From positions 142 through 64,141 of the forward strand of contig DASXHQ010000125.1 of the NCBI GenBank assembly GCA_036488415.1: 64,000 nt of DNA. Direction: 5' to 3'. The translations under genes were made by a program, and so were the position numbers. This document shows positions 7,744 through 44,872 of this stretch, piece by piece. Numbering within the stretch: the stretch's first letter is position 1; the number at the start of each line of letters is the position of its first letter. The notes beneath the pieces are model-generated. The model saw only the letters and a list, made by a program, of their open reading frames with translations, was not told the origin of the DNA and searched no databases. The DNA comes from Rhizomicrobium sp. GTDB lineage: Bacteria > Pseudomonadota > Alphaproteobacteria > Micropepsales > Micropepsaceae.

Positions 7744-9072
7744 ATGGCAGAACATCACACGCTCATGGGGGGCAAGCTTCACGTTTACAGACGTGAAGGC
7801 AGCTCGCATTGGCAGTGTTCCGCATACCTCGCTGGGAAGAACTGGCGAGTTTCCACGAAGGAAGAGAGTCTTTCACACGCGAAGGACTTTGCCGAAGACT
7901 GGTATCTTGGGCTGCGCGGAAAAGCCCGTAATGGCGAACTAAAATCAGGAATGAAGTTTGAGGAGGCTGCTGAGCTCTTCAAACTCGAGTTCGCGATTAT
8001 CACGCAAGGCGAGCGCAGCGCCAAATATCTCGAAATGCTAGAAATTTGCATTCGCGTTCATCTGTTACCCTTCTTTCGCGGAATGGTCGTGACCGAGATC
8101 ACGTCAGGCGTTGGCCAGCAATTCCGCATATGGCGCATGACGAAGCCGAAGGAGGCGGAAGAGCAGGAGAAGAAGGCCGAGCAAGAAGCGAAGGAGGCGC
8201 GGGAACGCGGCGAGGAACCTAAGGCGGTAAGGTATTGGAAGCTCCCCTCACGAAGCACTTTGCATCACGATTTTCAGGCGCTGCGCCATGTCCTCAAAAC
8301 TGCCCACCGCCACGGCAAACTTCAACATCTCCCCGATCTTTCTGCTCCATATAAATCTTCGGGAAAAATCTCGCATCGTGCGTGGTTTTCGCCGGACGAA
8401 TACAAAACATTCTATGAAGCCACGCGTAAGCGGGCGGAGAACCCACCGAATCCACGGTGGAAAAAACAGTGCGAGCAGTTTCACGATTTCGTTCTGATCA
8501 TGGTCAATACTGGCTTGCGACCAGACGAGGCATCGCGACTGGAATACCGCGACGTTGAGATCGTGAAAGACGCCAGCACCGGCGACACGATTCTTGAAAT
8601 CAGCGTTCGCGGCAAACGCGGCGTCGGCTATTGCAAGAGCATGCCGGGCGCGGTTTATCCGTTCCAGCGACTGCTAAAGCGGAACAAGCCCCAGCCTACT
8701 GATCTTATCTTTGGCAAGGTTCAGCGGGAGTTGCTGAACGCCATCCTCAATGAGACAGGTTTGAAAAAGGATCGGGAAGGCCGGCGGCGCACGGCCTATA
8801 GCCTTCGGCATACCTATATCTGCCTTCGCCTCTTGGAAGGGGCGGACATATATCAGGTCGCCAAGAATTGCCGCACCAGCGTCGAGATGATCGAGAAATT
8901 CTACGCAGCGCATCTCAAGAACATGATTGATGCAGCGGCGGTTAACGTAATGAAGAAAAGGTCGAACGACCGTCCGTCGAAGCGCATAGCGGACGTGAAG
9001 CGCAAGACCAAGGGGAGAAGTTCGGGGACCCGAAATTCCCCCAATCGCAGATTACAGAAACCCAAACCCTGA
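7744..9072 (+). CDS. int: tyrosine-type site-specific integrase
   Basis: 442 aa. The C-terminal catalytic region has ...TGLRPDEASRL..., ...AYSLRHTYICL... and ...IEKFYAAHL (R..HxxR..Y pattern). Lies next to the att site. Confidence 0.9.
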   Translation: MAEHHTLMGGKLHVYRREGSSHWQCSAYLAGKNWRVSTKEESLSHAKDFAEDWYLGLRGKARNGELKSGMKFEEAAELFKLEFAIITQGERSAKYLEMLEICIRVHLLPFFRGMVVTEITSGVGQQFRIWRMTKPKEAEEQEKKAEQEAKEARERGEEPKAVRYWKLPSRSTLHHDFQALRHVLKTAHRHGKLQHLPDLSAPYKSSGKISHRAWFSPDEYKTFYEATRKRAENPPNPRWKKQCEQFHDFVLIMVNTGLRPDEASRLEYRDVEIVKDASTGDTILEISVRGKRGVGYCKSMPGAVYPFQRLLKRNKPQPTDLIFGKVQRELLNAILNETGLKKDREGRRRTAYSLRHTYICLRLLEGADIYQVAKNCRTSVEMIEKFYAAHLKNMIDAAAVNVMKKRSNDRPSKRIADVKRKTKGRSSGTRNSPNRRLQKPKP

Positions 9073-9158: not shown

Positions 9159-9243
9159 GCCCGAGTGGTGGAACTGGTAGACGCGCTGGATTCAAAATCC
9201 AGTACCGCAAGGTGTGTCGGTTCGATTCCGACCTCGGGCACCA
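9159..9243 (+). tRNA. tRNA-Leu(CAA), island-borne intact copy
   Basis: 85 nt: GCCCGAG...CTGGA TTCAAAA TCCAG...long variable arm...GTCGGTTCGATTCCGAC CTCGGGC A CCA. The cloverleaf is complete with an encoded CCA. The acceptor and anticodon stems differ from the split host gene. Confidence 0.9.
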
Positions 9244-13082: not shown

Positions 13083-13468
13083 GTGAGACGTCTCACTGTT
13101 GTTGCAGGGTGTTCTTGAGCCGGGCCGAACGGCCTCAAGGCGACAGGCACGTTGTTGCTACGGAACCGTTGCGAGTGCCCATCGAACAGGGATCGGACGA
13201 TACCCGGGTTCGACATTCTTCCCCGCTTGATGAAACGCTACCTGTACGTCGTGCCTCTGCGTGCTTTTGTCATGACACCTTTCGTTGGCCGTCATTGCAT
13301 TTTGCGGACCATACGCGCGGCGGGCGCTTCCCGCGTCAACAGAAAGCCTCGGCTCCCCCGTCTCATGTTACACATGACGGTCCCCCCAATTTTTCTGTGT
13401 GACGCCGCGCCCTGACCGCTCGCCTTTCAGGTTCCGCCAATAACGGCAAACAACGAAAGGAAAAAGTC

Positions 13469-14298: not shown

Positions 14299-16590
14299 TT
14301 GAGATCGCGCAACGGCGATGACCTTGGGGGGATGCTTCCGATGAGCGCATGCGCTTCGGTAGAGCCTGACGTGGCAAGCGTCGCTTTCGGCCGAGCCTTG
14401 GCGCTTGTTTTTGTCGTTGCCCTTTTTGCAACAACCGCCACGCCGGTTGCCGCGAAAGATACGTCCAAAGCCTACGAGAAATCGCGGACGGTTTTGTTCG
14501 AGTGGGAAAAGCAGATGCCCACGGTCGAGCAAGTCAATGCCGATACCGCCAGCAGCGACAGCCGAGAGCAAGCAGCCAGTCGCGCGGCGGCGTTCAGCGT
14601 GCTTCTCGATGCAACCTCCACTTACGAAAGTGCGGAGGGTGCCTGGTATGTGGCTCCGCCGCAGGTCAAGGAGAAAACCGCAGGCTACGCGAGCGCCATC
14701 CGCGAAGCGTCGGGCAGCGCCCGTCTCGACGAAGAGAAGTTACGAAACGATCCGGGTTTCAGATATGAGGTGCTCAGTCGCTACTTCGCGCCCGAATATC
14801 TTGAAGCGGCACACGTTGCCGCCCCGCCGCCGCCGTCATTCACAACATGGTTCGCTTACGGCGGCGGTATTCTCGTGCTTGGCTTTTTCGGATGGCTGGT
14901 ATTCAGGCGCAAAGCGCCGGTCGATTCCGCTCCGCCGTTGACGGAGAACTACGGCAGCGCCGCTTGGGCGGCTTGGCGCGTGAATATCGATTCAGGTGAG
15001 GGCGTCGCGCAAGGCGTTGTCTTCGGCAAGAGCAGCGGCCCCGACATTCCAGCAGCCGCGCCCGGCACGCCGATTACGTCGCTGCCGGAAACGCACACGC
15101 TGATCGTCGCCCGCACCAGAGCGGGGAAAGGAACGCGCGTCATCGTGCCGACCTTGCTTCGCTACGGCGGCTCGATGCTGGTGATCGACCCCAAGGGTGA
15201 GAACGCGGCGATCACGGCGCGCACGCGCCGCGATCAGCTCGGGCAGACGGTTCACATCGTCAATCCGTGGGCAGAGATGGAAGGGCTCTACAAAAGCCTC
15301 GGCTTCGCGTCGGCAACCTTCAACCCGCTCGATGCACTCGACCGCGATGATCCGAATGCTGTCGCCTTCGCGCAATCGCTCGCAGCGATCATTTGCCCGC
15401 CCGCGACGGGCAAGGAGCAATATTGGCAGGGCAGCGCCGCCAATGTGCTGGCGGGCGTGTTTCTCTGGATTGCCGATGCACCGGGCGAACAAAAGACTCT
15501 CGCCCGCGCACGCCAGCTCGTGACCATGAGCCGCGCGGATTTTCTCAAGGTGCTGGTGAAGATGGCTTCCTCGACCGCCTACCAGGGCGCGGTCAGCGAA
15601 ATGGTCAGCCAGTACATCGACCTCGCGCCGGAAACTTACAGCGCGATCATGTCGAACTTGGCCGAGAACACCAAGTTCCTGTCAGACCCGCAGATCAAGC
15701 TATCGACCGCCACGTCATCGTTTTCGATGAAAACGTTCCGGGACGAAGCGACCACCGTTTATCTCGTCATCCCGCATGACCGGATTCAGACACACGCCAC
15801 ATGGCTCCGGCTTGTGATCGCCGCTGCCATGCAGGGCATGAAAAGTCACAAGGCCAGAACGGCACCTCGTTATCGCTGCATGTTCCTGATCGATGAGTTT
15901 GGCTCCATCGGCCGCATCGACGATATCCCGCGCGATATCGCGCTGATGAGCGGATACGGGCTCGACTTCACGCTGATCGTGCAGGGGCTCGATCAGCTGA
16001 AGGATCACTATGGCGATGCCAAAGGGACCATTCTTAGCAACTGCGCTTTCAAATGGTTCTGTTTCGTGAACGAACTCGACACCGCCAAATACCTCAGCGA
16101 GAGCCTTGGCAAGGCGACCGTGCGGACGGTCGGAAAATCCGAATCTTCGGGCAAGAGCGCCGACCGCGCGACGGCGGGAGAAAGCATCAATTACGGCGAG
16201 ATGGGTCGGCCGCTCCTGACGCCAGACGAAATTCTAAACCTTGGGCGTGACGCCGCGATCCTGCTCAATCCTCAGGGTCTGCCTTGCTACCTTCGTCCGG
16301 TGGACTACTGGAACCTTTCCAGCGCTTACGGCTATCTCAAGATGCAGGGTCATAAGTTCTATTGGGACCCGCCGGTCGCCTATGACGAAAATCCCTATTT
16401 CAAGGGGCAGCCGCCAGTCGCAGGGCAGATGTCGCGCGAGGAAGCGTTGAAAATCCTGAGCCTCGGGGAGCGTGCCGATAGAAACGCAATCGCGACGCGC
16501 TATCGCTCGATGGTGAAATTTCTGGAGCCGGGCGACGACGAGATTGCCCGCAAGCTCAATGCGGCGCGAGATGTGTTGATTGGGGAATGA
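14299..16590 (+). CDS. type IV secretion coupling protein (VirD4/TraG-like) with a J-domain-like C-terminal tail
   Basis: N-terminal hydrophobic segments. The NTPase core has ARTRAGKGT, VIDPKGE, MFLIDEFGSIG and LIVQGLDQL. The start is uncertain (TTG 14299, ATG 14332 or 14341). Confidence 0.85.
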   Translation: MRSRNGDDLGGMLPMSACASVEPDVASVAFGRALALVFVVALFATTATPVAAKDTSKAYEKSRTVLFEWEKQMPTVEQVNADTASSDSREQAASRAAAFSVLLDATSTYESAEGAWYVAPPQVKEKTAGYASAIREASGSARLDEEKLRNDPGFRYEVLSRYFAPEYLEAAHVAAPPPPSFTTWFAYGGGILVLGFFGWLVFRRKAPVDSAPPLTENYGSAAWAAWRVNIDSGEGVAQGVVFGKSSGPDIPAAAPGTPITSLPETHTLIVARTRAGKGTRVIVPTLLRYGGSMLVIDPKGENAAITARTRRDQLGQTVHIVNPWAEMEGLYKSLGFASATFNPLDALDRDDPNAVAFAQSLAAIICPPATGKEQYWQGSAANVLAGVFLWIADAPGEQKTLARARQLVTMSRADFLKVLVKMASSTAYQGAVSEMVSQYIDLAPETYSAIMSNLAENTKFLSDPQIKLSTATSSFSMKTFRDEATTVYLVIPHDRIQTHATWLRLVIAAAMQGMKSHKARTAPRYRCMFLIDEFGSIGRIDDIPRDIALMSGYGLDFTLIVQGLDQLKDHYGDAKGTILSNCAFKWFCFVNELDTAKYLSESLGKATVRTVGKSESSGKSADRATAGESINYGEMGRPLLTPDEILNLGRDAAILLNPQGLPCYLRPVDYWNLSSAYGYLKMQGHKFYWDPPVAYDENPYFKGQPPVAGQMSREEALKILSLGERADRNAIATRYRSMVKFLEPGDDEIARKLNAARDVLIGE

Positions 16591-24597: not shown

Positions 24598-24827
24598 CGT
24601 AGTTCAGTCCCTTCTTGTTTGCCGTCCCTCGAATGGCAGTGTGCAGCGACCGTGCCGGACGCGGACGCTTTCCGCGTCAACTAAAAATTTGGCTCCCTCG
24701 CCGGCAGGCAATGCTCCGGTGACATCGCATTGCCTCCCCCAATTTTTTTGTGTGACGCCGCGTCCTCGCGCCCGGCCTTGGTTGCGCTGTCCCATCGGGG
24801 ATGAACGCAAACACAAGGAGCATGAAC

Positions 24828-26324: not shown

Positions 26325-26486
26325 CTGTTCGGCTCTCCACAAGCTGCGCTTGAACCCGGAGATACTTGCAAAATGGCGCGTTTTACTGGGGACGCTCAAT
26401 AGAGCGCCATGTCCTTTTAAGTAAAACAAGCGCCTTTGACGACGGGGGCTTGGAAATAGGGTATCCTCGCATTGAGAGGATATGCC

Positions 26487-29159
26487 GTGGCACAGGACCT
26501 GTTTGCATGGGCCGAGAAACAAGCCGACTGGGCGCGTGATGCCCTGCGGCGGCATGCCTGCGCGCCGAATTTCGAGCTGGGGGCAGATGATAAGGCGCAG
26601 GTGCTTCACCGCGTGCGCAGCGCAGCGGGGATCGTGGATGAAGGCTCATGCGAGAATGCCCCGTTCGCCACCGAGCACTTCAAAGGGAGTGCAGGAGAAA
26701 GCAGCCGAACGTTGCTCGTATCACTGGGACCCGTGAAGAACCTGGCACGCCTTGCGCCAGATCAAAGGCTCAGCTTCGCACTCGACGGCATTACACTGAT
26801 CTATGGCGACAACGGCAGTGGCAAAACCGGCTACTGCCGTATCACGAAGAAGGCCTGCCGCAGCCTTACTGCCGACGATTTGCTTGGCGACGTGTTCCAA
26901 AAGGGTGACAAGCCACCAGCCGAAGTTGTCATACGCTATCGCGGCGACGGCGAGGAAGAAGTGACAGAACAGCTCTGGACGGACGGCACGCCGCCGCCCG
27001 CAGCCATCGCGGGCATTTCAGTTTTCGATTCCAGGAATGCGCGCCTTTTTGTCGATGCTGAAAACAGAATCGGATTTCTGCCACGCGAAGTCGCACTGCT
27101 GGAGCAACACGCCCGGCATTGCGGCGAAATGGATTCGAAGATCGAAGGGGAAGTGAAAGCGCTCAACGCGCGGCTCAAAATCGCGCTGCCCGGCGGTTAT
27201 GCGGCGGGCGGAGACGTCGCAAAGCTCTTCGCCCGCCTAGTCCCAAAACAAGTCTTGCCATCCGAAGCGGAAGTCCGCGCCGCCGCTGCCTGGACGGAAA
27301 AGGATCAGAAAGACCTTGAGGATTTGGAGCGCCTTTTAGCGCAGGACCCGAAGGCGCTCGCCGACCGTTACCGGCGCGCAGCCTCTCTTCTCAAGGGATA
27401 TTCGACCGACGCGAAGGCTATTGCAGACGGTCTCTCAGCCGAAAATGCAGCGAAATTCGCAGAAGCACAGGCGTTGGCTAAAACCACAGCCGAAGCGGCG
27501 GCGCTGGCGGCGTCGGATCGTTTCAAGGACGAGCCGCTGGCGGGCGGGGGATTGCCGCCCTGGCGTCTCATGTACGACTACGCGGAGAAATATGTGCAGT
27601 CGCTCGGCAGCGACGTGCTTTCCGCAAAGGAGGGCGACCCCTGTGCCCTCTGCCAGGAACCTCTTTCGGCGGACGGCGCGGCGCGCATGCAGCGGTTCGC
27701 AGATTTCGTCAATGACCAGGCTTCCAAAACGGCAGACGCGGCGGCGGAAGCGCTGGGCGTCGGGGTTAGTGCGCTCCGAGACCTGATTATCCCGAAGGTC
27801 AAGGATATCGAGAATGCCCTCGCCGACTATCGAAAGATCAACGACGGAGCGGAACAGCTCTTTACAGCGATCACCGCGTATTTCAGTGCCGCCGAAGCAC
27901 GTCGGAGCGCGCTCATCGATGCGGCTGTGACGGCTGCATTTGATGCCGTTCCGGCCTTGCTGGACCCGATTGAGGAAAAACTGGACGGTGAGGCCACCCA
28001 GCTCGAAAACGACGCGGCTAAACTCGATGCAGCCGCTGCAGCCGATGGTGCCCAGCGTATGGCCGAACGTGAGCGCCTCGCGAAGCTGAAAGATCGCAAG
28101 AAGCTCGCCGACGACCTCGAAACGGTGTTGGCGCGGCTGAAAGACCTGGAGATGGCGGGAAAGCTTGCGAAGTGCCGCGAGCTTCTGAGCACCAAAGCCG
28201 TATCCGTCCAGATCACGACATTGCGTCGGGATCTGGTGACCACCGATCTTGAGAAGCGCATCATGGAGGAGATCAAGACGTTCGATCTTCTGCACCTTCC
28301 GTTCCGTGTCACTGACCGGAGCGATGGCGGGAAAAGCAATTTCAAGGTTGTGCTGGATACGCCCGTCGGCGTCGCCAACGACAAGGTGCTCAGTGAAGGT
28401 GAGCAGCGCGCGCTGGCGCTGGCCTGTTTCCTCGGCGAATTGGGCGGCGATACCGTCAAGCACGGGGTTGTAATAGATGACCCCGTGTCCTCGCTCGATC
28501 ACATTCGCATCCGGCGCGTCGCCCAGCGCGTCGTTGACGAGGCAGCGAAGGGGAAGCAGATCATCATCTTCACGCATAATCTGCTGTTCTACAATGAAGT
28601 GTCGGACGCCGCCGCGCGGGCGCAGCCGCAAATCCCCGTCGCCAAGCGCATTGTCACCAAATCGGCAGAGGCAGGTTTTGGCATTATCGCGAATGATGAC
28701 GAACCTTGGATCGCCCAGGCCGTTAAGGACCGGCTCAAACGCCTCCATGAGACCTTGAAGGCGATGGAAACGCGGACGGACGTTGAAACGGATGCTTATC
28801 GACGCGCAGTGAAGGACTTTTACACCGACCTCCGGGAGACATGGGAGCGGCTCGTCGAGGAATTGCTGCTTGGCAAGACGGTCGAGCGGTTCAACACGGA
28901 TGTCAAAACACAAAGCCTGAAAGGTGTTGTCGTTGAAGACGACGACTACAAAAAAATCTATTGGGCCATGAAGCGCGTTTCCGAACGCTCCGGCCACGAC
29001 ATGGCTGCTGGGAAGAATCTTCCACCACCGAAGATCGACGACATGAAGGCGGATTTGAAGGAGTTTGAAGATTACCAAAGCGCGATCCGAAAGCGGAAGA
29101 AGGACACCGAGGAGGTGCGCAAAAAACTTGAGGAGCCGCCGAAGGCGGCAACTCAATGA
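26487..29159 (+). CDS. SMC/Rad50-like ABC ATPase of the AAA_13 (RloC/PrrC-like) type with a coiled-coil insert and CxxC hook
   Basis: GTG at 26487, 6 nt after GAGAGGA. Walker A GDNGSGKT (26805-26828), a long Ala/Glu/Lys-rich helical insert containing CALC (27642-27653), signature-like LSEGEQRALALACFL, Walker B/D-loop VVIDDPVSSLD. The C-terminal module has LRETWERLVEE...FNTDV...SERSGHD. Confidence 0.85.
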   Translation: MAQDLFAWAEKQADWARDALRRHACAPNFELGADDKAQVLHRVRSAAGIVDEGSCENAPFATEHFKGSAGESSRTLLVSLGPVKNLARLAPDQRLSFALDGITLIYGDNGSGKTGYCRITKKACRSLTADDLLGDVFQKGDKPPAEVVIRYRGDGEEEVTEQLWTDGTPPPAAIAGISVFDSRNARLFVDAENRIGFLPREVALLEQHARHCGEMDSKIEGEVKALNARLKIALPGGYAAGGDVAKLFARLVPKQVLPSEAEVRAAAAWTEKDQKDLEDLERLLAQDPKALADRYRRAASLLKGYSTDAKAIADGLSAENAAKFAEAQALAKTTAEAAALAASDRFKDEPLAGGGLPPWRLMYDYAEKYVQSLGSDVLSAKEGDPCALCQEPLSADGAARMQRFADFVNDQASKTADAAAEALGVGVSALRDLIIPKVKDIENALADYRKINDGAEQLFTAITAYFSAAEARRSALIDAAVTAAFDAVPALLDPIEEKLDGEATQLENDAAKLDAAAAADGAQRMAERERLAKLKDRKKLADDLETVLARLKDLEMAGKLAKCRELLSTKAVSVQITTLRRDLVTTDLEKRIMEEIKTFDLLHLPFRVTDRSDGGKSNFKVVLDTPVGVANDKVLSEGEQRALALACFLGELGGDTVKHGVVIDDPVSSLDHIRIRRVAQRVVDEAAKGKQIIIFTHNLLFYNEVSDAAARAQPQIPVAKRIVTKSAEAGFGIIANDDEPWIAQAVKDRLKRLHETLKAMETRTDVETDAYRRAVKDFYTDLRETWERLVEELLLGKTVERFNTDVKTQSLKGVVVEDDDYKKIYWAMKRVSERSGHDMAAGKNLPPPKIDDMKADLKEFEDYQSAIRKRKKDTEEVRKKLEEPPKAATQ

Positions 29160-29632
29160 GCGGGCCAGAAAGCAAAACGGTGGTCTGCTTCGCCTATGGT
29201 TCGAACATGGATACTGCACGGCTGCGCTCGCGCGTTGGCGAGTGCAAGTCCCTGGGCGCTGCAACATTGCCGGCGCACCAGCTGCGCTTTCATAAGCGCA
29301 GCATCGACGGCACAGCGAAATGCAACGCGCATTTCACGGGCGATAAGAGCGACCGTGTTATTGGTGTGTTGTTTGAGGTGTCCCGCGAGCGAAAGCCCGA
29401 TCTGGATAAGGCTGAAGGCCTGGGCAACGGCTATCACGAGCAGGTCATAGAAGTAATGCTTGTCGATCAAAGCACGCAAAAGGCTCTCGCCTATATCGCA
29501 GACGACACGCATATCGACGATCAATTGAAGCCAACCACCGAATATCACGGCTACGTCGAAAGAGGGGCAAAAGAGCACGGTCTGCCGGAGGATTATATCG
29601 CGCAACACATAATGTCCGTTCAGGCGGAATAA
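29156..29632 (+). CDS. gamma-glutamylcyclotransferase / AIG2-like family protein
   Basis: N-terminal CFAYGSNMDTARL (the YGSN motif) and LDKAEGLGNGY with the conserved Glu. 158 aa, ATGA overlap with the ABC ATPase gene. Confidence 0.8.
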   Translation: MSGPESKTVVCFAYGSNMDTARLRSRVGECKSLGAATLPAHQLRFHKRSIDGTAKCNAHFTGDKSDRVIGVLFEVSRERKPDLDKAEGLGNGYHEQVIEVMLVDQSTQKALAYIADDTHIDDQLKPTTEYHGYVERGAKEHGLPEDYIAQHIMSVQAE

Positions 29633-29656
29633 AGATTGTTATCGGGGGAACCTGAC

Positions 29657-31096
29657 ATGGATGACATTCGCTTTTTCGATCTCAATATCGAGAAGATTCT
29701 GGAGGCTTGGGATAACGCCCATGCTGTACGCGAGCTGATAGCGAATGCGCTGGATGAACAGGTTCTAAGTAACACCAAAGAGGTGGAGATCAGCAAGAAC
29801 TCAGCGGGATCATGGGTGATCAGGGATTTCGGTCGGGGGCTGCGCTACGAACACTTTACGCAGAACGAGAATCCGGAAAAATTGAAGGTTGTCGGTAAGG
29901 TGATCGGCAAGTTCGGCGTCGGCTTGAAAGACGCTATGGCAACGCTGGATCGAAACGGCACTGGCGTAGAGATCGAGTCCGCCTTTGGCATCATTACGCT
30001 CACTCAGCGTGCCAAGCACGATTTTGGCGATGTCGCGACGCTGCATGCGGCAGTAGCCGCGCCGCGTGATCGATCTTTTATTGGAACCGCTATCCGGCTG
30101 CCAAAACTGTCCGACGGCGAGATGGCCCGCGCCAAAAGCTTTTTCCTGAAATTCTCGGGCGAAACGATCATTGAGGAGAACCGGGTCGGCCGCATCCTTG
30201 AGAAAAAGGGCGCCGTAAGCCGTATATATGTGGCAGGTCTTCTTGTTGCCGAAGAGGAAAACTTCGCATTTTCCTACGACATTACCAGTCTCACCGAGAC
30301 GATGAAGAAAGCGCTCAACCGCGAACGCACAAATGTCGGTCGGACGGCCTACAGCGAGCGTGTTAAAGCGATGCTTCTGCAAACCGAAAGCCACGCCGTC
30401 GCCAAGGTCCTTGCAGACCAACTGATGGCGCTGGAGCAGGGAACCGGCTCTGATGAGGTCCGGTGGAAGGACGTTGCCGTGCACGCTTGCAAGATTCTGA
30501 GTGCAAGCGGTTCGTATCTATTCGTGACGGCCTCACAACTGATGGACAATGCCAGCGCTGTGAATCATGCGCGGGATGACGGGCTCAAAATCGTCACTGT
30601 GCCCGATAATATTCACGCCGAAGTCGCCGGCGCGAAGGACATTTCTGGGGCGCCGATACGCGATCTGGGCGTGTATCAGTCCGAATGGAACAATAGCTTT
30701 AAGTTCAACTGGATCACGCCCGATAAGATGACGGATGCCGAGCGTGAGGTGTTTTCCAAAGTATCTGCCATCGCCGGCCTGGTTGGCGGGCTCCCGGCAA
30801 AGGTGAAAGAAATCCGCATCAGCAAGACCATGCGGCAGGATTTTCTCAGTGGATCGGATGCGCTTGGATTGTGGGATTCTGGGAGCGCCAGCATTGTTGT
30901 CCGTCGCGATCAGTTGAGGTCTTTGGACGCTTTTGCAGGCGTCCTGCTACATGAAATTGCGCACGCCCGAAGTGGTCACGACGACGTTACGCGCGAGTTC
31001 GAAAACGAATTGACCGAACTGCTCGGCGTTGCAGCGGCGGCTGCAATATCGGCACATGGAAAAGCGCCACAGAAGCAGTCGTTTTGGCGTCGCTGA
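29657..31096 (+). CDS. GHKL (Bergerat-fold, HATPase_c_3/MORC-like) ATPase fused to a C-terminal HExxH zincin module
   Basis: N-box VRELIANALDE, G1 box IRDFGRGL, G2 box GKFGVGLKDA. The C-terminal LLHEIAHARSGHDD has HEIAH at 30950-30964. Start at ATG 29657 or TTG 29636. Confidence 0.8.
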   Translation: MDDIRFFDLNIEKILEAWDNAHAVRELIANALDEQVLSNTKEVEISKNSAGSWVIRDFGRGLRYEHFTQNENPEKLKVVGKVIGKFGVGLKDAMATLDRNGTGVEIESAFGIITLTQRAKHDFGDVATLHAAVAAPRDRSFIGTAIRLPKLSDGEMARAKSFFLKFSGETIIEENRVGRILEKKGAVSRIYVAGLLVAEEENFAFSYDITSLTETMKKALNRERTNVGRTAYSERVKAMLLQTESHAVAKVLADQLMALEQGTGSDEVRWKDVAVHACKILSASGSYLFVTASQLMDNASAVNHARDDGLKIVTVPDNIHAEVAGAKDISGAPIRDLGVYQSEWNNSFKFNWITPDKMTDAEREVFSKVSAIAGLVGGLPAKVKEIRISKTMRQDFLSGSDALGLWDSGSASIVVRRDQLRSLDAFAGVLLHEIAHARSGHDDVTREFENELTELLGVAAAAAISAHGKAPQKQSFWRR

Positions 31097-31143
31097 ACGC
31101 GCTGCTCTTCCTTGCCTAGCTGCGTGGCGGAGGCCACTGTCGA

Positions 31144-33435
31144 ATGAAACTCCCCGAACGGCTCGAAAAGATTCGCTTTATTATTTTCGAGATGCAGCTC
31201 GCCCATCTCATAGCGAAGCACGCCCCGGATTCCTTTATTGCGCGGACGATTGCCCGCCATGTGGTCATCAGGGCGGAGAATTTCATCGCCCACACCCGCG
31301 CCATCCGAAAGCCGCTCAATAGGGCGGGGTATGGCACAAGTGAGTTTCACACCGCTAAAGAGGCTTATGCGGACTTCTTCGATGAATATTTCCGCGTGTC
31401 CCGCAATAAGCTTGGCGCGCATGTGCAGGACTTCGACTTCGGCAAGAGGATCGAGCTTTGGAACGATATCGAGGTCACGAAGCTGTCCTTTTTCGTCGAT
31501 GGGGCAATTGAACTTTACGGAAAGCTGGCGCCGCTGAATATTCCCGGCTTCGTCGCATACACCGCGCCGGTGGAGCTTTCCGACGCCGCCATCCTTGCAA
31601 GTCTGGCAGACTTCAGCCGCGTTCGCGAGGACAAGCGCTGGGTTGAGACCAGCGCAGACCCGCTCGCAATGACCCGCGATAATACGACCGCGACCATGAA
31701 CTTTGCCCCTGCCAGTCTGCGCGCGGGGCAGCTTGCCCTTATCCGCCGCTGGATCGCGCTACAGCTACCACTGTTGCAGAAGTTCTCCGCGTCGCCGTCG
31801 GTGACGCGCATATTCAAGGCGCGGGTCGTGACGGATATCGTCAGCTTCGCGGATTGCCTGGTCACGAGACCTGTTTCACCGACCGCGCCGCAGGCGATGG
31901 ATGGCCTCGACAAGCTGATCGTCTCGGCAAGAGGATCGTCCGCTGCCATTGATGACTTTGTCGCCGCGTCGCAATTCACTCCCGAGACGGACCGGGCGCG
32001 CATCGTGCGCGACCGGATCGGTGCGCATTTCGATGACGTGGCAAATCTATCAAGCCTATTGAGCTTGCTGGACGGGTTCGACCTGCCGCGCGCCCTTACT
32101 ATTTACGATCTCGCGACAGCCGCATTTATCAAGGCATGCCGCGGAACCCTCTTTCTGCGGTTATACGCTGCGGACGGCCAACGCATTTACGGCGTCACAC
32201 CGGCGGGTCGTGCGGCTGTTCCATTTTCTCCAGACAGCCTCCAGATTGCGCCGCCATTGCCCGAGCCGTTCCGTGACGAGGATGACGCCTATCGTCATCA
32301 CCTGCGGCTATGGCTTGACGGCGACGAGAAGCAGAAGGGAGACGGCAGACAGTATTTTGTAACGTCCTTCTCGGCTTCCGCCGTCATTGAAGATATCGAC
32401 GAGCGACTGACGTTCGCCGGAGGCTGGAGGAACTACCGCCACCACTATCGCCGCGTTGATCTGTTCTTCGAGGGGTTCATCGGGGCGCAGATTACGGACG
32501 CCGATTATGCCGGTGTACTCGACCTGTTTCATACCTGCGGTGGAATCGATCCCTATGCCCTCTCCGAAGTATTGCTCCGGTCGGTGGACAAGGTAAGCGG
32601 GCCGAACCAGGCCAATTGCTGCTATATGCTCGGCGAGCTTGGCCGCCTGCCGCACGCAAGCGTCGAGGATTTTTTGAGACTTCGCCTTAAGCACCCGCTT
32701 TGGGGCATGCGGCTGCAAGCGCTCATCGCGCTTTTCAAAATGTTCATCAAGGCTGAAGGTCAATACCGGCTCAATCATGCCGGGAAGATATCGGTTGAAT
32801 ACTCTGCGTTCGTCGATACCCTTTTGAAGGGTCTGCACCCCAACGAGCTGTTCATCGTCAGGCTCGCGTTCGCGAGCCTGCTTAGCACCATCGGGCTATC
32901 GACTTATTTCGAGAAGTTCAAACCGGAATATGAAGCGCTTCAATCGGCGATTAAGGCCAATGCTTTGCAGTTTCTCCCGACGGATGGCAACGCGGCGAAC
33001 GCGAAGCTCCTCGAACAACTCATTCAAACCCGCGACTATGTTGGCGTCGCGCTTCTCGTCGCCGTCGGGCTGGAGGCCGAACGCGACAAGCCTATGCGCG
33101 AGGGTGTGTTGAATGCCTGCATGGGCGGGGTCATACGCGCCGCCGAACATCCGCAAGCGCAGAGGCATCTTGCGATGTGTTACCTTGTGAGCAAGCAATA
33201 TCCGCTGGCCCTCCAGCAGGCCCGCGCAATTGCCGGGGCAAATCCGGATAGCCTCTATCATCGGATGACGGTCGTCATGGTTCTGGCAGAGACGCCCGGC
33301 GCTGCCCGCGAGGTTCTCGGTGAAGCCGGACAGGTGCGACTGACCTACAAACTGGATGCTAAAGCCGAAGGGGAGCTATCCGCGCTTGAGGGCGCCGCAA
33401 ACGCAGCGATTACAGGGTCTCGTCAGCCTGCCTAG
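31144..33435 (+). CDS. large alpha-helical protein with two HEPN-like R[ND]xxGAH motifs and a HEAT/TPR-like C-terminal region
   Basis: RNKLGAH at 31402-31422 and RDRIGAH at 32008-32028, each Rx5H with a polar residue after the Arg and each in a predicted helical context. The C-terminal roughly 300 aa is repetitive helical sequence. The coding call is firm. The RNase call is inference. Confidence 0.6.
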   Translation: MKLPERLEKIRFIIFEMQLAHLIAKHAPDSFIARTIARHVVIRAENFIAHTRAIRKPLNRAGYGTSEFHTAKEAYADFFDEYFRVSRNKLGAHVQDFDFGKRIELWNDIEVTKLSFFVDGAIELYGKLAPLNIPGFVAYTAPVELSDAAILASLADFSRVREDKRWVETSADPLAMTRDNTTATMNFAPASLRAGQLALIRRWIALQLPLLQKFSASPSVTRIFKARVVTDIVSFADCLVTRPVSPTAPQAMDGLDKLIVSARGSSAAIDDFVAASQFTPETDRARIVRDRIGAHFDDVANLSSLLSLLDGFDLPRALTIYDLATAAFIKACRGTLFLRLYAADGQRIYGVTPAGRAAVPFSPDSLQIAPPLPEPFRDEDDAYRHHLRLWLDGDEKQKGDGRQYFVTSFSASAVIEDIDERLTFAGGWRNYRHHYRRVDLFFEGFIGAQITDADYAGVLDLFHTCGGIDPYALSEVLLRSVDKVSGPNQANCCYMLGELGRLPHASVEDFLRLRLKHPLWGMRLQALIALFKMFIKAEGQYRLNHAGKISVEYSAFVDTLLKGLHPNELFIVRLAFASLLSTIGLSTYFEKFKPEYEALQSAIKANALQFLPTDGNAANAKLLEQLIQTRDYVGVALLVAVGLEAERDKPMREGVLNACMGGVIRAAEHPQAQRHLAMCYLVSKQYPLALQQARAIAGANPDSLYHRMTVVMVLAETPGAAREVLGEAGQVRLTYKLDAKAEGELSALEGAANAAITGSRQPA

Positions 33436-33525: not shown

Positions 33526-36500
33526 TTAGTCTGCGGTCGCATCCGGGTCGGGCATCATGATCGGCCAGGGCTTGCCCGACGCAAGGTCGGGATGGCGAGG
33601 CTCGGTTTCCGGCGCGCCGTAATCGTCCCTGAACTTGTCGATGAGGCTGAGGCAGCGCGCGGCGGGATCATCAGCCCCGCCGCACTTTGTCATCGCCAAA
33701 AGCTTCCGGCGCAGTTCGGTGGCGGGGACGGGCACGACGTTGTACGCGCCTTTCCAGTTTTCGGAGGGTACGTGTTCGGTGACGGCGCTCTGGATTGACT
33801 GCCACGCCAGATACGAGCGCCCGGTCTTGATCTCGATATCGATCAGCATGAGCAGTCCTTCAGTTCCGGGGGCTTGGGCGACAGCGTAGGCGAGGAGCGC
33901 GAGAGCTTTGGAACTGACCCCATCCTTGAGCAAGGCGTACACATAGGCGCGCACTTCCGCGAACGCCGAGATCAGGGCGCCAAGTTCGCGCCCCCAAAGC
34001 AACTCGTCCGTGGGCTTGCCGTCCAGCGTGCCGCTGACCGTCAAATCAATGAGGCGGCGCGCGGCTGATACGGTGCCGAGTTGCATGGCTGTCGCCCGCC
34101 ATTGGTGGTTCAGGTAGAAGCGCGGGTCTTCTTCGGCGAGCTTGAACAACACATCTTCCGCCCCGGCTGAGGGCGCGTTCCCGAGGCCGCCAACCATTTC
34201 TTCGAGCAAATGCGGGTTACGCTGCGCGTCAGGCATGCCGCGCACGATGGCGGGCAGATCGGCGACAGGGTTCGCGAAGGGCAGGAGTCGCAACCATGCG
34301 CGGAGCTGGTAAGCGTCGCTCTGCGTTAGAATCCACGTCTCCTTCTTTGCCGCTTCAAAAGTCTCCGTAATGCCGTCTGCCACAAGCCTGATGTTGATGT
34401 GCTCGCCGGAAAGGACGAGCGCCAAAAGCAACGCCGCGCGCGCCTGTCGCGGCGCGAGCGCAATAAGCTTCTGAATCACCGCGTCGCGCTGGCCATGGGG
34501 CAGCCGCGCACCGACGATCCCGAGGGCTACCGCCAGTTTCCTTTGTTCGTCCGTCGATCCTTCGGCAATCAAAGTGTCAATCGCGCCAAAGATGGCTTCG
34601 GCTTCCGCCGATGTTTCGGCGGGATTGGCGGCGCGGGCGGCGCGACGTTCTTCGATGCGCGAGAAATCCGCGCCGCTGCGGAATTTCCTGTCGCCCTTGG
34701 GTTCGTTGGCCTCTGACCACTGGACGGCAAGCACCGTCGCGGCCAGTTGCCCGAAATGTTCGTCGGTTAGATAGCCGCTCATAAGCGCGGCGGTCTCCGG
34801 CGTCTTGATCGCGATAAACGCGCGTTGATATTCGTGCGTATGCGGCGTCCGGGCCTCGTTCACCGCCGCGCCCTGACGCCAGCCGTTGGCGCTGGCTTCT
34901 TCACGGAAGGCGCGATAGCGGCGCAAATTGTCGTCGAGCAGTCTCTTGAGCAGCGGGAGCAGTGCTACGGCCGGAGCGTGACCGATCAGGGAGGCGATAG
35001 AAGCCATTTGCCCGCGCGTGGCGTCGCCTGACGCGAGCATGCGTTCACCCCATGCCCGGGCCAGCTTGCCAATCGCGGCCAGGCCTTCGGCATTGAACGG
35101 CCGCGCGCGGTCGTTGTCTCCGTTAGTCTCCCGGGACAGAAGCCCGGCCAGCTCCACAATCTCTTCGTTGTCCGCCGTGCCGGCGCGCGACTGCACGGCG
35201 GCAATCAGGCTCGCTCCCGGCGTATGGCCGATGCGCGCACGAAGGTCGTGGTAACGATCACCCGCCGCTTGATCGTATTTGCCGCTGGCGTCGCGCAATA
35301 CTTTGCGGGCGTCAAGATACGCGTCGATCATCCGGTCAACGGCCTTTGGCCCGAGCACCGAGGCGGCAGCCTCTGCGCGGTCATCAGGGCGGCGCGTCTC
35401 CCCGAGCGCGGCGTCGAGCAGCGCGTGGTCTTCAAGCGCAAGCCCGGCAGCCGCGAGAATGTCATCCGCGCCATAGAACAATGTGCGGTTCTCGCGCACA
35501 CGGCGCAGCAGTCCCTCCGCGAGCGCTTGCGGGTAGCGTTTTCGCACTTCGTACAACAGGTGCATTTCGCCATCGCGTTTACGGTCGATCTCCATTTCGG
35601 CCACGATCCCGCTGACTTCCGCAGCGCTGTCATCGCCGCCCTTGGCGTAGAGGAGCGCCCGCAGGCGCTCGAAGGGAGAGACGCCAGCCGCCTGGCGGCG
35701 TTCACGCGCCGCCGCCAGACCTTTCTGAACGGCATCGACGGCAATGTCATCGATGTGGCCTTTCTCGGCCAGGATGTCATAGGTCGCGTCGCCCGCGTCG
35801 CCGAGCAGGTCGGCGACGTGGCGATCCGCCCGCCGAAATGAAAGCGCATCGACAACGGCCGCTTTCACATCGGGATCGCTGTCGGCCTTCGCGACGGCGG
35901 TCGCAAGGTCGAGGCCGTCCATGCCGCCCTGCATCGCGATTTCATGCAACACGTTCCTGCGGACTTCTGGGGGCAGCGCCGCGATCCGCTTCGGGGCGTC
36001 GCTCCCGAGCAAAGACGGACGGAACCGTCTCGCCGCCCGCAGGGCAGCCAGATGAACCTGATTGTTTTCATGCGTGATCAGGGGCCAGATCAGGTCACCG
36101 AATTCCGGTCTGCCCGACGTGGTCATGAACCGGACGGCGCGATCCACTTTGCCGGGCGCATGCCACTTATCGATGAAGCCACGAATCTTGGCGCTGATCG
36201 GCGCCCACACGTCGTCGGTGGCGCGAAAGATCATTTCGCCCGCGAGGACAGGATCGACCTCGAAGGCGGCGAGAATGGCCGCGCCGCAGGCGGCCTTCTG
36301 CGCGGCATCGCCGCGCGCGCTCCGTTCGACCGCGAACAGGATCGCTTCTTCCCACGGGCGCTGGTTGAGCACATCGGCCTTGAGCTTGTCGCGCGCCGCC
36401 ATGTCGCTACCGGCGTCAGCCATCAGGCGTTCGACGCGGTGGGACGCATACCATTCCTGAAACTGCTGATGCTGAAATGAATAGCCCGGCGTGTCGCCGG

Positions 36501-37893
36501 CGCGCATCAGGACGTGATTGCTCACGAGGGTTTCCAGCAGCGTGCCGGGTTGTGTGGTGATGGTGATTTGCCCGTCCGCCAACAGCATCTGCGCCGTCGC
36601 CGAAACCGATTTCCGCGCGTTGCCGTCCGTAATGGCCGTGTTCGCCGTTGTCGTGGCGAATACGGCGAGGTCGTCCAGATAATCCCGCTGAAAGCCGTGC
36701 GTCACGGCGTAAAGCGCCGCCGCGCGCCCGGCTGCCTGTTCATGGGCGGCAACAAAACGCCGCAGCACTTCTTCCTTCGTCGCCGGAAACGGCGCGCCGT
36801 CCGGTAGCGAGAGCAATGCCGTGAGATAGAGCGGGATGGTCACCAACTCACGGACACCCGCTGTCCGCCACGCCTGATCGACGAGCTTTGCACCGTTATC
36901 GCCGCGCATCGCCCTGGCAATTTCCATCTGCTGTTCGTCGTTGAGCGGCAGCAGATCGACGCGCGTGCCGGCGAAAGGAATGTCGAGGGCCTGTTTGCGC
37001 GTGGAAATCAGCAGGCCGAGTTCGGGCAGTTCCGCTTTGAGGTTTGTGACCTGCACCCGTGCGCGATCACGCGCGGCGGTGTCAAGTTCGTTCCAGCCGT
37101 CGAGCAGAAGCACGACCCCGGGCTTGGCGGCGACGGCTCGGAAGTCCGTCTCCGAAACCCCGGTAAACGCGGGGCGCTTCAGGATGGACGCGAGCAACGC
37201 GTCGCTATCGGTGGCCCAATCACCGAGCGGCACGAGGAGCGGCGTGCCGTTCCCGATCTCCAGCACGCCTTCGGCGACCTGAAAGAGCGTGGTCGTCTTT
37301 CCCATGCCGGGCGGCGCGATAAGGATAAGGTCATCGAGCGTGGTGACGGCGTTCGCGAGCGCGCGCGTACTCAGCGCCTCATCCACATGGTCAATCTTGA
37401 GCGTCAGCGCGACAGCCGTGCCGGGCCATTTATCCGTCTGCCGGAATACCGCCAGATCGGCCGCCGCCGCCGCGCGCAGCCGATCTCTCAATGCGTCGGG
37501 CGTTAGCGCTTGCATCCCCGGTCCAAAAGGAGAGTTGTCCATGATGCTGCGCCACGAATCCCTGTCAGTCTGCGTTTTCCAGTCGCGCAGCAATTCGACA
37601 GTGAATATCGAATCCTTCGCGTCCACGGCGCGCGCATGGACATCACAAAGCCAAATGCCGTTTTCGATGGAGCGCCGTTCTTCGGGCGTCATGCTATCGT
37701 CGTAGCGCGGGCCACCCGGCGCGGCGGCGCAAATGTGCGCCGCTTCCCCGATGTTAATTTCGCCAGAAGCGTCGGAGTTCGCCGCGTGCGTTAGGCGGCG
37801 GCATGCCGGATTGGAGCAATGGCCGCGCGCCTGTCTCTCAAGGGCCTTCTTGGTCCGGTCTGTGAATTCGTCTCTGTTCTTGTTCTTGGCCAT
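33526..37893 (-). CDS. STAND NTPase: N-terminal HNH-like nuclease, NACHT-type P-loop, long HEAT-like repeat region
   Basis: N-terminus HCSNPACRR...GEAAHICAAAPGGPRYD...ENGIWLCDVHARAVD (HNH/His-Me finger pattern). Walker A IAPPGMGKTT (37291-37320), Walker B VVLLLDGWNEL, then about 1100 aa of helical repeats. 1455 aa. Confidence 0.85.
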   Translation of the reverse strand: MAKNKNRDEFTDRTKKALERQARGHCSNPACRRLTHAANSDASGEINIGEAAHICAAAPGGPRYDDSMTPEERRSIENGIWLCDVHARAVDAKDSIFTVELLRDWKTQTDRDSWRSIMDNSPFGPGMQALTPDALRDRLRAAAAADLAVFRQTDKWPGTAVALTLKIDHVDEALSTRALANAVTTLDDLILIAPPGMGKTTTLFQVAEGVLEIGNGTPLLVPLGDWATDSDALLASILKRPAFTGVSETDFRAVAAKPGVVLLLDGWNELDTAARDRARVQVTNLKAELPELGLLISTRKQALDIPFAGTRVDLLPLNDEQQMEIARAMRGDNGAKLVDQAWRTAGVRELVTIPLYLTALLSLPDGAPFPATKEEVLRRFVAAHEQAAGRAAALYAVTHGFQRDYLDDLAVFATTTANTAITDGNARKSVSATAQMLLADGQITITTQPGTLLETLVSNHVLMRAGDTPGYSFQHQQFQEWYASHRVERLMADAGSDMAARDKLKADVLNQRPWEEAILFAVERSARGDAAQKAACGAAILAAFEVDPVLAGEMIFRATDDVWAPISAKIRGFIDKWHAPGKVDRAVRFMTTSGRPEFGDLIWPLITHENNQVHLAALRAARRFRPSLLGSDAPKRIAALPPEVRRNVLHEIAMQGGMDGLDLATAVAKADSDPDVKAAVVDALSFRRADRHVADLLGDAGDATYDILAEKGHIDDIAVDAVQKGLAAARERRQAAGVSPFERLRALLYAKGGDDSAAEVSGIVAEMEIDRKRDGEMHLLYEVRKRYPQALAEGLLRRVRENRTLFYGADDILAAAGLALEDHALLDAALGETRRPDDRAEAAASVLGPKAVDRMIDAYLDARKVLRDASGKYDQAAGDRYHDLRARIGHTPGASLIAAVQSRAGTADNEEIVELAGLLSRETNGDNDRARPFNAEGLAAIGKLARAWGERMLASGDATRGQMASIASLIGHAPAVALLPLLKRLLDDNLRRYRAFREEASANGWRQGAAVNEARTPHTHEYQRAFIAIKTPETAALMSGYLTDEHFGQLAATVLAVQWSEANEPKGDRKFRSGADFSRIEERRAARAANPAETSAEAEAIFGAIDTLIAEGSTDEQRKLAVALGIVGARLPHGQRDAVIQKLIALAPRQARAALLLALVLSGEHINIRLVADGITETFEAAKKETWILTQSDAYQLRAWLRLLPFANPVADLPAIVRGMPDAQRNPHLLEEMVGGLGNAPSAGAEDVLFKLAEEDPRFYLNHQWRATAMQLGTVSAARRLIDLTVSGTLDGKPTDELLWGRELGALISAFAEVRAYVYALLKDGVSSKALALLAYAVAQAPGTEGLLMLIDIEIKTGRSYLAWQSIQSAVTEHVPSENWKGAYNVVPVPATELRRKLLAMTKCGGADDPAARCLSLIDKFRDDYGAPETEPRHPDLASGKPWPIMMPDPDATAD

Positions 37894-38495
37894 TAGGATG
37901 CGGACTGTTGGGACTTTCTGCCCCCCAACGGGGCGGCATAGCGCGACTATACCATTTCGCCGCGCCGTGCCGAACTACCGGATCGCCATGGTTTTCCGTA
38001 ACCTCTGCATTACGTCATACGCTGCTTTGCGGTCGGCAGCGATTTGCGGAATCTAGGCCGCCACACCTCGGGCACCAACGGTCGCAATAGCGCACCCGGC
38101 AAGTTTGCAAATTGTGGCCAACGACTTGTCTGTAATCGCTTCATGGCATTCCGTACCACAGTGACAGGCTTTGGATTCAGTTTGTGCACGGGTGCGTCGC
38201 TCTGCGACCGGGCTCTATGCGCTGAAGCGCACCGAGCCGCACAGCGTCTCGGCCTTCGGTAACGATCCCTCGCGCAAAGAGAGTTGTTCGGCCGCGTAGA
38301 CGCCGCCGGATCGCGCTTTGGCGCGAAGCTTATGCGCTGGCGCAACCGGGCCGTAAGGCGTCTCGGCCCGTTCGGGTGGCGATTCCTCGCGAAAGAGGGG
38401 GTGCCGGTTCCTGCCGCTATGGGGCTTCTGCGGTGCGCGCCACACCGCGTTAAAGGCGCCATTCTCTGCATATTTGCAGGGTGGTTGCATCATTC

Positions 38496-38579
38496 ACTTG
38501 TAATGACAATGCATTATTGACTTGTAATGGTAATTCATTATATACTTGCAACGGTAATACACTAAAAACTTGTGATGAC
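38496..38579 (+). repeat. four tandem 24-bp iterons ACTTGYRAYGRYAAT... abutting the Fic start codon
   Basis: Units at 38496-38519, 38520-38543, 38544-38567 and 38568 onward (the last is truncated by the ATG at 38580): acttgtaatgacaatgcattattg / acttgtaatggtaattcattatat / acttgcaacggtaatacactaaaa / acttgtgatgaca. Confidence 0.65.
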
Positions 38580-40126
38580 ATGGCTCAACCAAACGAAAAA
38601 CTTGCAGTATCCCTGAGTGAGCTTGCGCAATTGCAGGCTGAGGGAAGACGCGTATTTAGGTCCAAAGAGCTTTCCCGGGTCCATCGGAACGCCTGCTCAA
38701 GCACGGCTTCATTCAGGAGGTCATGAGAGGCTGGCTTATCTCCTCCAGCCCGAGCGCTGCCCAGGGCGATAGTACCCCTTGGTACGCCTCTTTCTGGGAG
38801 TTTTGCGCCCTCTATTGCAATGACCGTTTTGGAGAGAAATGGCACCTCTCACCCGAGCAGTCGATTTTTCTGCATGCCGAAAATACCGTTATTCCGACCC
38901 AGCTCATCGTCTACAGCCCCAACGGCACCAACAACACCGTCCCGCTTCTCTTCGGCACATCCATCTACGATCTCAAGCAGCCGCAAATGCCACCGGTGGC
39001 CGACGTAACGCTGCGCGACGGACTGCGGCTGTTCTCTCCGGCCGCCGCCTTGATACGGGTGCCGGAAGCTTTCTTCTCTCGCTATCCTATCGAAACACAG
39101 GTGGTGCTGACCGGCATTCGCGATGCCTCCGACATGCTGAGCCGTCTTCTGGCCGGCGGCCACTCCGTCGTCGCAGGAAGGCTTGCTGGAGCGTTCCGGC
39201 GGATTGGGCGCGCGGATGTTGCGGACGAAATCATCGCGACCATGAAAGCCGCAGATTACGTGGTCAACGAAACCGATCCGTTCGCTGCGCAGTACGTCTT
39301 TGGCGTACTGCGCAGAGATACACCGCCGATTGTCGGACGCATCGATGCCATGTGGAAATCTATGCGGCAGGCGGTCATCGACGCATTTCCAAAGGTGCCG
39401 GGTCTTCCAAAAGACCAGAAAGCCTATTTGAGTTTCATCGACGGTATTTATCAAAGCGATGCCTACCATTCGCTTTCCATCGAGGGATACCAGGTTACTC
39501 CCGCCCTCATTGAGCGCGTGCGCTCCGGTGCGTGGGATCCACAAAATCACGACGCTGACCGGCAAAACCGCGATGCCCTCGCCGCCAGAGGTTATTGGCA
39601 GGCATTTCAACTGGTAAAGGCGAGCGTCGCTGGAATTATCACCGGTAAAAATGCCGGTGCGATCGTGCGCACGGCCCATCGTGACTGGTATCGCGAGCTA
39701 TTTCAGCCCTGCATTGCCGTTGGTTTGCTCCCTGCGACCGCGTTGGCGGGCTATCGCAATGATGCTGTCTATCTTCGCACCTCGCGTTACGTGCCTCCTC
39801 GTTGGGAAGCCGTGCGCGACGCGATGCCAGCATTGTTCGACTTGCTCGAAGCCGAGCCTGAACCGTCAGTGCGCGCAGTGCTGGGGCACTGGCTGTTCGG
39901 CTATGTGCACCCTTATCCCGATGGCAACGGGCGCATGGCCCGCTTCCTGATGAATGCAATGCTGGCGTCAGGTGGCTATCCGTGGACGATCATCCGTGTC
40001 GAAGATCGATCTGCCTATTTGAGCGCTCTGGATAGCGCTAGCGTCGATATGGATATCGCACCATTCGCCAAATACGTCGCCGGGCGGGTCAAATGGTCGA
40101 TGGAACAGCCTGCAGCAACCCAATGA
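38580..40126 (+). pseudogene. Fic/DOC-family protein with an apparent 1-nt frameshift near 38686 (otherwise intact)
   Basis: Fic motif HPYPDGNGRMARFLMNAML. The 467-aa frame opens only after the TAG at 38657-38659. Frame +1 from the ATG at 38580 gives MAQPNEKLAVSLSELAQLQAEGRRVFRSKELSRVHR. This continues sensibly as ERLLKHGFIQEVMRGWLISS only if one base is added around CATCGG|AACGC. Confidence 0.6.
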
Positions 40127-44816: not shown

Positions 44817-44826
44817 AGACTCAAAA
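44817..44826 (+). repeat. attR core, 10-bp direct repeat AGACTCAAAA
   Basis: Identical to 7613-7622. Preceded by an AT-rich arm carrying TTACACA motifs. Confidence 0.75.
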
Positions 44827-44872
44827 TCTGGTTCCGCAAGGAGTGTCGGTTCGATTCCGACCGCCCGCACCA
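44827..44872 (+). tRNA. 3' fragment of the split tRNA-Leu(CAA) gene
   Basis: TCTGG (pairs with CCAGA at 7611-7615), variable arm TCCGCAAGGA, T-arm GTCGGTTCGATTCCGAC, acceptor CGCCCGC (complement of GCGGGCG at 7584-7590), then A and CCA. Joined to 7584-7622 it gives an 85-nt cloverleaf. Confidence 0.85.

Follow-up and report, generated by a model that had tools for sequence, protein, structure and literature searches.

A tandem-HEPN protein with a C-terminal repeat solenoid as a candidate single-gene defence effector in Rhizomicrobium

HEPN RNases are metal-independent enzymes whose active site is built from two juxtaposed Rx4-6H motifs, and few effectors are more common in prokaryotic immunity. 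Nearly all that have been characterised depend on something further: on dimerisation, on a partner antitoxin, on a cyclic-nucleotide signal or on a guide RNA. Cas13 carries two HEPN domains, which form one composite RNase site that needs licensing. In DSR2, a SIR2 enzyme is joined to a C-terminal HEAT-like sensor, and a phage structural protein that binds the sensor switches the enzyme on. Here we describe a 763-amino-acid (aa) protein encoded in a 64,000-nucleotide (nt) stretch of Rhizomicrobium sp. DNA (assembly GCA_036488415.1, contig DASXHQ010000125.1, positions 142 to 64,141 of the forward strand), which we call the window. We regard this protein as a candidate HEPN RNase for defence that no catalogue lists and whose architecture is unusually self-contained, and not as something categorically new.

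The curated family that comes closest to it is AbiU2. This HEPN family was defined in silico in 2013, with operons that include TPR-like Sel1 repeat genes and with restriction-modification contexts (Anantharaman et al. 2013). Catalytic HEPN domains keep a conserved Rx4-6H motif, typically with a polar N, D or H directly after the Arg (PMC3710099). A preliminary description of the window, made from the sequence alone, had picked out two motifs of this kind (RNKLGAH and RDRIGAH) in the 763-aa protein, ascribed them to an internal duplication, proposed a single-chain composite RNase comparable to Cas13 and read the C-terminal ~300 aa as HEAT/TPR-type repeats. It had let the idea stand or fall with the conservation of the motif residues and with HEPN domains around them.

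The paired motifs and the domains around them

The gene is complete and lies at 31144..33435 on the + strand, stop codon included, with an ATG start and a GGAGG at 31129..31133 (+), 10 nt 5' of the ATG, that is a likely ribosome-binding site from our reading of the sequence. The open reading frame (ORF) list and its translation contain both motifs exactly as first described. RNKLGAH is R87-NKLGA-H93 (residues 87-93; 31402..31422, +) and RDRIGAH is R289-DRIGA-H295 (residues 289-295; 32008..32028, +), which gives a spacing of 202 residues. All further parts of the gene are on the same strand.

How much weight such motifs deserve depends on how they are defined. The loose pattern R-x(4-6)-H occurs six times in the 763 aa, compared with 4.3 times expected from composition; because this excess is small and the protein is Arg-rich, the loose pattern is weak evidence by itself, and conservation is what decides. 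The fuller pattern R[ND]xxGAH, whose shared GAH ending had been called unusual, is another matter: 15 of 20,000 shuffled sequences contained it once and none contained it twice (0/20,000).

Conservation was assessed at two depths. Among 31 homologs at 41-50% identity, R87, A92, H93, R289, G293 and H295 are invariant. A deep alignment of 48 full-length homologs, with identity down to 17%, has 12 invariant columns, and the Arg and His of both motifs (R87, H93, R289, H295) are four of them. The remaining invariant columns are R34, R38, R43 and W106, which share HEPN domain 1 with R87 and H93; D172 and R178, in the segment between the domains; and D237 and R286, which share HEPN domain 2 with R289 and H295. 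In the same 48 homologs the residue after the motif Arg is N, D or H, except for a T at motif 1 in three members.

Profile searches connect both halves with one curated family. When the 48 homologs were scanned singly, 24 matched Pfam PF18734 (HEPN_AbiU2), with a best E value of 1.5e-8, and this was the sole non-repeat Pfam family that recurred among them. The relatives score 15-31.7 bits, and three (P0230, P0235 and P0203) exceed the PF18734 gathering threshold, a whole-protein score of 26.8 bits, each through two matched stretches. First-half matches are found in P0190 and P0192 (residues ~13-125), and second-half matches in P0181, P0188, P0199, P0206 and P0220 (~250-325); counted by region, HEPN domain 1 is matched in P0190, P0192, P0230 and P0235, and HEPN domain 2 also in P0203. 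The majority consensus likewise matches HEPN_AbiU2 in its first half (E 0.004-0.017) and in its second half (E 1.3e-5 to 2.3e-4). Because homologs and half consensuses match PF18734 on either half, we take both halves to be diverged AbiU2-type HEPN domains, and the HEPN families that the preliminary description had asked for are thereby present around both motifs. The target itself is best classed as a diverged relative of HEPN_AbiU2 and not, by Pfam's own gathering rule, as a member: a direct Pfam search of it returns weak HEAT/TPR matches only, and it has no matches in NCBIfam, PADLOC or PDB sequences.

The two halves also resemble each other. Aligned with hhalign, residues 1-165 and 166-350/370 pair 54-127 with 255-330, which places the motifs in register, at a score of 30.1 and an E value of 3e-4. 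Controls, which used the reversed sequence and C-terminal regions, scored 12-16 with E values of 0.05-0.25. Together with the equal order of helices in both halves of the AlphaFold2 model, this alignment bears out the internal duplication that was first proposed from the motifs.

The AlphaFold2 model has a predicted local distance difference test (pLDDT) score of 84.8 and a predicted template-modelling (pTM) score of 0.82 at full length, and of 86.7 and 0.87 for residues 1-350. In it, HEPN domain 1 (residues 1-130; 31144..31533) consists of helices 3-25, 30-53, 66-90, 99-106 and 111-126. An inter-domain segment (residues 131-188; 31534..31707), with short strands at 166-170 and 181-183, leads to HEPN domain 2 (residues 189-345; 31708..32178; pLDDT mostly 89-97), where helices 189-213 and 218-239 are followed by an insert (240-277) between helices 2 and 3 and then by helices 278-293, 302-311 and 314-334. 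In both domains the motif is found where the third long helix (66-90 and 278-293) reaches its C-terminal end and passes into a loop. The low pLDDT of the motif-1 loop (50-57) would fit a catalytic loop that is mobile. This helix layout fits the published HEPN description (PMC3710099). Foldseek gave no significant HEPN match; the HEPN toxins 8yuf and 8xdj appeared at E ~4 with the N-terminal model, and we do not count them as evidence. With the full-length model, Foldseek matches in PDB were solenoids only (importins, TPR), at E values of at least 8e-3.

Repeats, relatives and surroundings

Behind the HEPN pair comes a linker (residues 350-379; 32191..32280) that is poorly conserved and modelled with low confidence (pLDDT ~59). 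It is followed by a middle alpha/beta module (residues 380-450; 32281..32493), for which AlphaFold2 predicts two helices, a beta-hairpin (414-436) and a further helix. The module has no family match; within the 31-sequence set its R436 is invariant and its H439 nearly so. The rest of the protein is a C-terminal helical-repeat solenoid (residues 451-758; 32494..33417), and here the early reading of HEAT/TPR-type repeats is confirmed. A family profile matches consensus TPR proteins in PDB at ~630-750 (E 1e-20 to 1e-9) and alphaRep/HEAT proteins at ~470-530, and Pfam gives weak HEAT_2 and TPR matches in the target and stronger TPR matches in homologs.

We propose that this solenoid is a sensor or docking surface. 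Mean pairwise identity in the closer set is 57-60% for the HEPN halves, 43-45% for the repeats and 30% for the linker. A conserved HEPN pair with faster-evolving repeats is the usual pattern of an effector joined to a recognition surface.

A search of a 5.8-billion-protein collection found 156 relatives, almost all of which are 755-770 aa long, match over their full length, are nameless or called 'hypothetical' and have no precomputed Pfam domain. In a library of 1.84 billion representatives, a profile search returned 392 clusters at 50% identity; among the members listed, those with a name are all 'hypothetical protein' and most are nameless. The spread is patchy and takes in Alpha- and Betaproteobacteria, Acidobacteriota and Bacteroidota. 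On two Ralstonia solanacearum megaplasmids (CP022781.1, 367107-370445; CP022791.1, 1631073-1634284) the insertion sequence (IS) IS1420, of the IS5/IS1182 family, splits the homolog in two, and in 17 other records among those listed the homolog is intact and gives a single match over its full length. Hosts can thus do without the gene, and at times it is inactivated. PADLOC-DB v2.0.0 gave 0 matches to the target at E<=1. Literature searches brought up no account of a tandem AbiU2-HEPN/TPR architecture, a result that does not extend to the sequences of the four HEPN-containing systems validated in the DefensePredictor study, with which there may be overlap.

Short relatives of ~360 aa amount to no more than the tandem HEPN pair: both motifs are kept, and there is no TPR. 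Several have a precomputed PF18734 match. They are likewise solitary, and no separately encoded TPR partner stands consistently beside them. At one locus (L047, 2028-7083 of the metagenome contig ERZ20067608 ptg000776l) a 360-aa tandem-HEPN relative comes right after genes for an AAA ATPase (508 aa) and a large WD40 beta-propeller (790 aa), with GrpE and an HSP70-like gene downstream. Sensing at this locus may have been split off into a repeat protein of its own.

The neighbours of full-length homologs were compared by all-against-all clustering of flanking ORFs at 35 non-redundant loci, a small sample without an enrichment statistic. No neighbour is common to more than three of the 35 loci. 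A homolog with 91% identity adjoins SIR2-HerA; operons of cyclic oligonucleotide-based antiphage signalling systems (CBASS) lie beside homologs in Burkholderia and Stenotrophomonas; a Bradyrhizobium homolog has AbiEi/AbiEii, an OLD-type TOPRIM protein and Fic as neighbours; and HipA, integrases, resolvases and ParDE occur beside others. The gene thus travels alone, recurrently near defence systems or on mobile elements, and this is what the operational definition of a single-gene defence island describes.

In the window, the gene follows three others on the same strand (26472-31096, +). The first encodes an 895-aa ABC-type ATPase with a match to PDC-S06, a PADLOC candidate system (E 1e-170). 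The second encodes a 158-aa AIG2/GGACT-like (gamma-glutamyl-cyclotransferase-like) protein, and the product of the third (486 aa) shows a weak match to GHKL/sacsin-like ATPases. The AIG2-like gene overlaps by 4 nt and the GHKL gene comes after a 3-nt gap, so by their spacing the three look like one operon. Because PDC-S06 is catalogued as a single-gene candidate, the AIG2-like and GHKL genes may be an undescribed accessory pair of it. A 47-nt gap separates the stop of the GHKL gene (31096) from the target ATG (31144), and a promoter and terminator scan around the target gene gave matches no commoner than in shuffled sequence. We considered a functional link between the target and the upstream GHKL, AIG2 and PDC-S06 genes and rejected it, since none of them recurs beside homologs.

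On the other side, a gene for a 1455-aa protein (33526-37893, -) converges on the target gene. At its N-terminus the product is HNH/endonuclease-like, by the PADLOC models PDC-M68A and CBASS-effector endonuclease; further parts are a HEAT-like stretch and a NACHT C-terminal NCAB2 domain, and the protein is probably an NLR-like defence protein. It is followed by a Fic/DOC-domain gene (467 aa; 38723-40126). An AT-rich 24-nt tandem repeat of ~2.6-3.6 copies (38486-38572) precedes the Fic gene by ~150 nt, possibly as an operator or iteron-like element.

These genes lie in what looks like a ~35.6-kb mobilisable island (~9244-44872), inserted at a tRNA gene and bounded by att-like repeats. The last 55 nt (9189-9243) of a tRNA-Leu(CAA) gene at 9159-9243 recur at 44818-44872 with 85% identity, and the GC content of the stretch that holds the target is lower (0.53-0.61) than that outside (0.60-0.64). 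Further genes of the low-GC region encode an IS110 transposase, a type IV coupling protein, a NikA/MobC-like protein and a relaxase, and a weak integrase-like ORF (7744-9072) is found upstream of the tRNA, immediately beyond the island. Inside the island, a 44-nt direct repeat with 82% identity (13383-13426 and 24736-24779, 11.35 kb apart) brackets the coupling-protein/relaxase block. The coupling protein is encoded by another 763-aa ORF of the window (14299-16590), which was considered as a paralog of the target and ruled out as unrelated. Between 24000 and 42000 the window has no CRISPR array and no Rfam family, and there are no cas genes nearby.

A proposed mechanism and its rivals

The explanation that we hold with somewhat more belief than doubt is that of a stand-alone immunity or abortive-infection effector on a mobile island, i.e., a single-chain AbiU2-type HEPN-pair RNase that is released by a repeat sensor. 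As far as sequence-based tools reach, the interpretation of the preliminary description is supported. The N-terminal 345 residues comprise two diverged AbiU2-type HEPN copies, each of which retains the catalytic Arg and His. Because HEPN active sites need two juxtaposed Rx4-6H motifs, we infer that the copies would pack as an intramolecular pseudo-dimer and form one composite metal-independent RNase site, which the ~300-residue HEAT/TPR solenoid, perhaps together with the middle module, would hold off. During infection the solenoid would recognise a ligand specific to that state, with a phage protein as the likeliest candidate. Once bound, the ligand would release the flexible motif-1 loop or change its order, or else cause the protein to oligomerise. 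The enzyme would then cut RNA of the cell and/or the phage (tRNA, rRNA or mRNA), which would stop translation and phage growth. To the full form of this idea, a guide-free and NTPase-free single-chain dual-HEPN RNase whose TPR/HEAT solenoid recognises a phage protein and thereby turns the enzyme on directly, we give a little less than an even chance.

Several observations weigh against the explanation as a whole. The target has no HEPN match in Pfam, either whole (E<=10) or as separate halves (E<=1), and its HEPN assignment depends on transitive homology through its relatives. A Foldseek search with residues 1-350 against PDB and BFVD returned nothing significant. Regarding defence, the 48 family members match no PADLOC model, with five scattered single matches at E values of at least 0.01, and at one locus the homolog has been cleanly inserted, as a single gene, among housekeeping genes and has no defence neighbour. 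Lastly, the literature on lactococcal AbiUii (AbiU2), the founding member of the AbiU2 family, describes it as not being the protective component of AbiU, and its co-expression lowered resistance.

The nature of the pairing is where a different answer deserves most attention. The RNase could be kept and the HEPN domains could pair between chains, in a homodimer or oligomer formed through the TPR solenoid or on a multimeric trigger; domain 1 would then meet 1' and domain 2 meet 2', or 1 would meet 2'. A dimer would thus have two active sites, for which RnlA, Csm6 and HepT are precedents. Most characterised HEPN RNases are indeed intermolecular dimers, the ~360-aa tandem-HEPN relatives do without TPR, and the low-confidence motif-1 loop of the monomer model would fit ordering on assembly. 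However, both copies and their motifs are strictly kept, in the short forms too, as a fixed intramolecular pair predicts, and the pTM of 0.87 for the two-domain N-terminal model suggests a defined domain packing, so we consider pairing between chains unlikely, if well worth keeping in mind. That the HEPN domains are no nucleases at all, and serve as ligand-, nucleotide- or RNA-binding modules of a housekeeping or regulatory protein, is very unlikely in our judgement. Some HEPN families are non-catalytic (PMC3710099), and the target has neither a direct curated HEPN match nor a structural match, but the non-catalytic families have lost Rx4-6H (PMC3710099), which is invariant here in both motifs; the patchy distribution, the mobile and defence-island context and the IS disruptions argue against housekeeping as well.

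Two further alternatives concern what the protein is for and whether it works alone. A self-inhibited RNase could serve a selfish element as an addiction or competition toxin, stabilising the island or opposing rival elements, with the repeats as a built-in antitoxin. A mobilisable island with relaxase and coupling protein would suit such a role, toxin-antitoxin genes (HipA, ParDE, AbiE) are often adjacent to homologs, and HEPN toxins are common in toxin-antitoxin systems. We nevertheless find the idea improbable: no small antitoxin gene adjoins the target, no partner of any kind is conserved across the 35 loci, the most frequent neighbours are known defence systems (CBASS, SIR2-HerA and NACHT), and a faster-evolving 300-residue TPR solenoid is closer in kind to the sensors with which defence proteins detect ligands than to an antitoxin. 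Slighter still is the chance that the target is the fourth gene of a multi-gene system and works only with the PDC-S06 ATPase, the AIG2/GGACT-like protein and the GHKL ATPase. Its place in the window invites the thought, as it lies on the same strand after a 47-nt gap with no convincing terminator or promoter between, yet none of the three genes stands beside homologs in the 35 other loci, the 91%-identical homolog follows SIR2-HerA instead, and the single-gene cataloguing of PDC-S06 also speaks for independence.

Significance and comparison with known systems

If the single-chain, sensor-released RNase is real, it would be compact, with both halves of the active site and the sensor in one protein, and would make a simple system in which to follow the licensing of a HEPN site by its ligand. 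It would also represent a new one-gene class of innate immune sensor-effector, built on a free-living tandem-HEPN scaffold that is otherwise best known from Cas13. The family would extend defence-system finders (~390 clusters at 50% identity, several phyla, no PADLOC model), and for the poorly understood AbiU2 HEPN branch there would be a function open to testing. Should a phage protein prove to be the trigger, the enzyme could be used as a protein-activated RNase reporter.

AbiU2 (AbiUii, PF18734) is the only curated family that relatives match on both halves, and it has the same R[ND]xxxxH motif style. The AbiU2 Pfam model describes one HEPN domain, whereas the target has two copies, a middle module and a ~300-residue TPR/HEAT solenoid, and the AbiU models of the PADLOC defence catalogue do not match the target family. 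The LA2681-like and C6orf70-like HEPN families offer a second likeness, as they too have HEPN fused to TPR in a defence or conflict context; they were tabulated without mention of a HEPN dyad (Anantharaman et al. 2013). Among the Pfam families listed, no family member matched HEPN_LA2681; the matches were to AbiU2 and, weakly and in one consensus, to Cthe_2314.

The comparison with Cas13 made in the preliminary description stands for architecture only, i.e., two HEPN domains in one polypeptide. It does not extend to sequence: Cas13 gave no sequence or fold match among PDB chains, and there is no CRISPR array or known RNA near the gene. Licensing would also differ, being by a protein-repeat sensor in the target and by pairing of CRISPR RNA with its target in Cas13.

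Avs and other NLR-like STAND proteins resemble the target in coupling what is presumed to be a TPR recognition surface to a nuclease effector in defence islands. Searches of Pfam, NCBIfam and PADLOC and the AlphaFold2 secondary structure revealed no NTPase domain anywhere in the 763 aa, the model having helical domains and one beta-hairpin only. Activation therefore cannot be by NTP-driven oligomerisation of the STAND type.

In its logic the target also resembles DSR2. The DSR2 effector is an NADase and that of the target a predicted RNase pair, and the two have no detectable homology (DSR2 chain 8wyc_B is at Foldseek E 4.4). What they share is the layout: an N-terminal toxic enzyme and C-terminal helical repeats, in a sensor-effector arrangement that is free of an NTPase.

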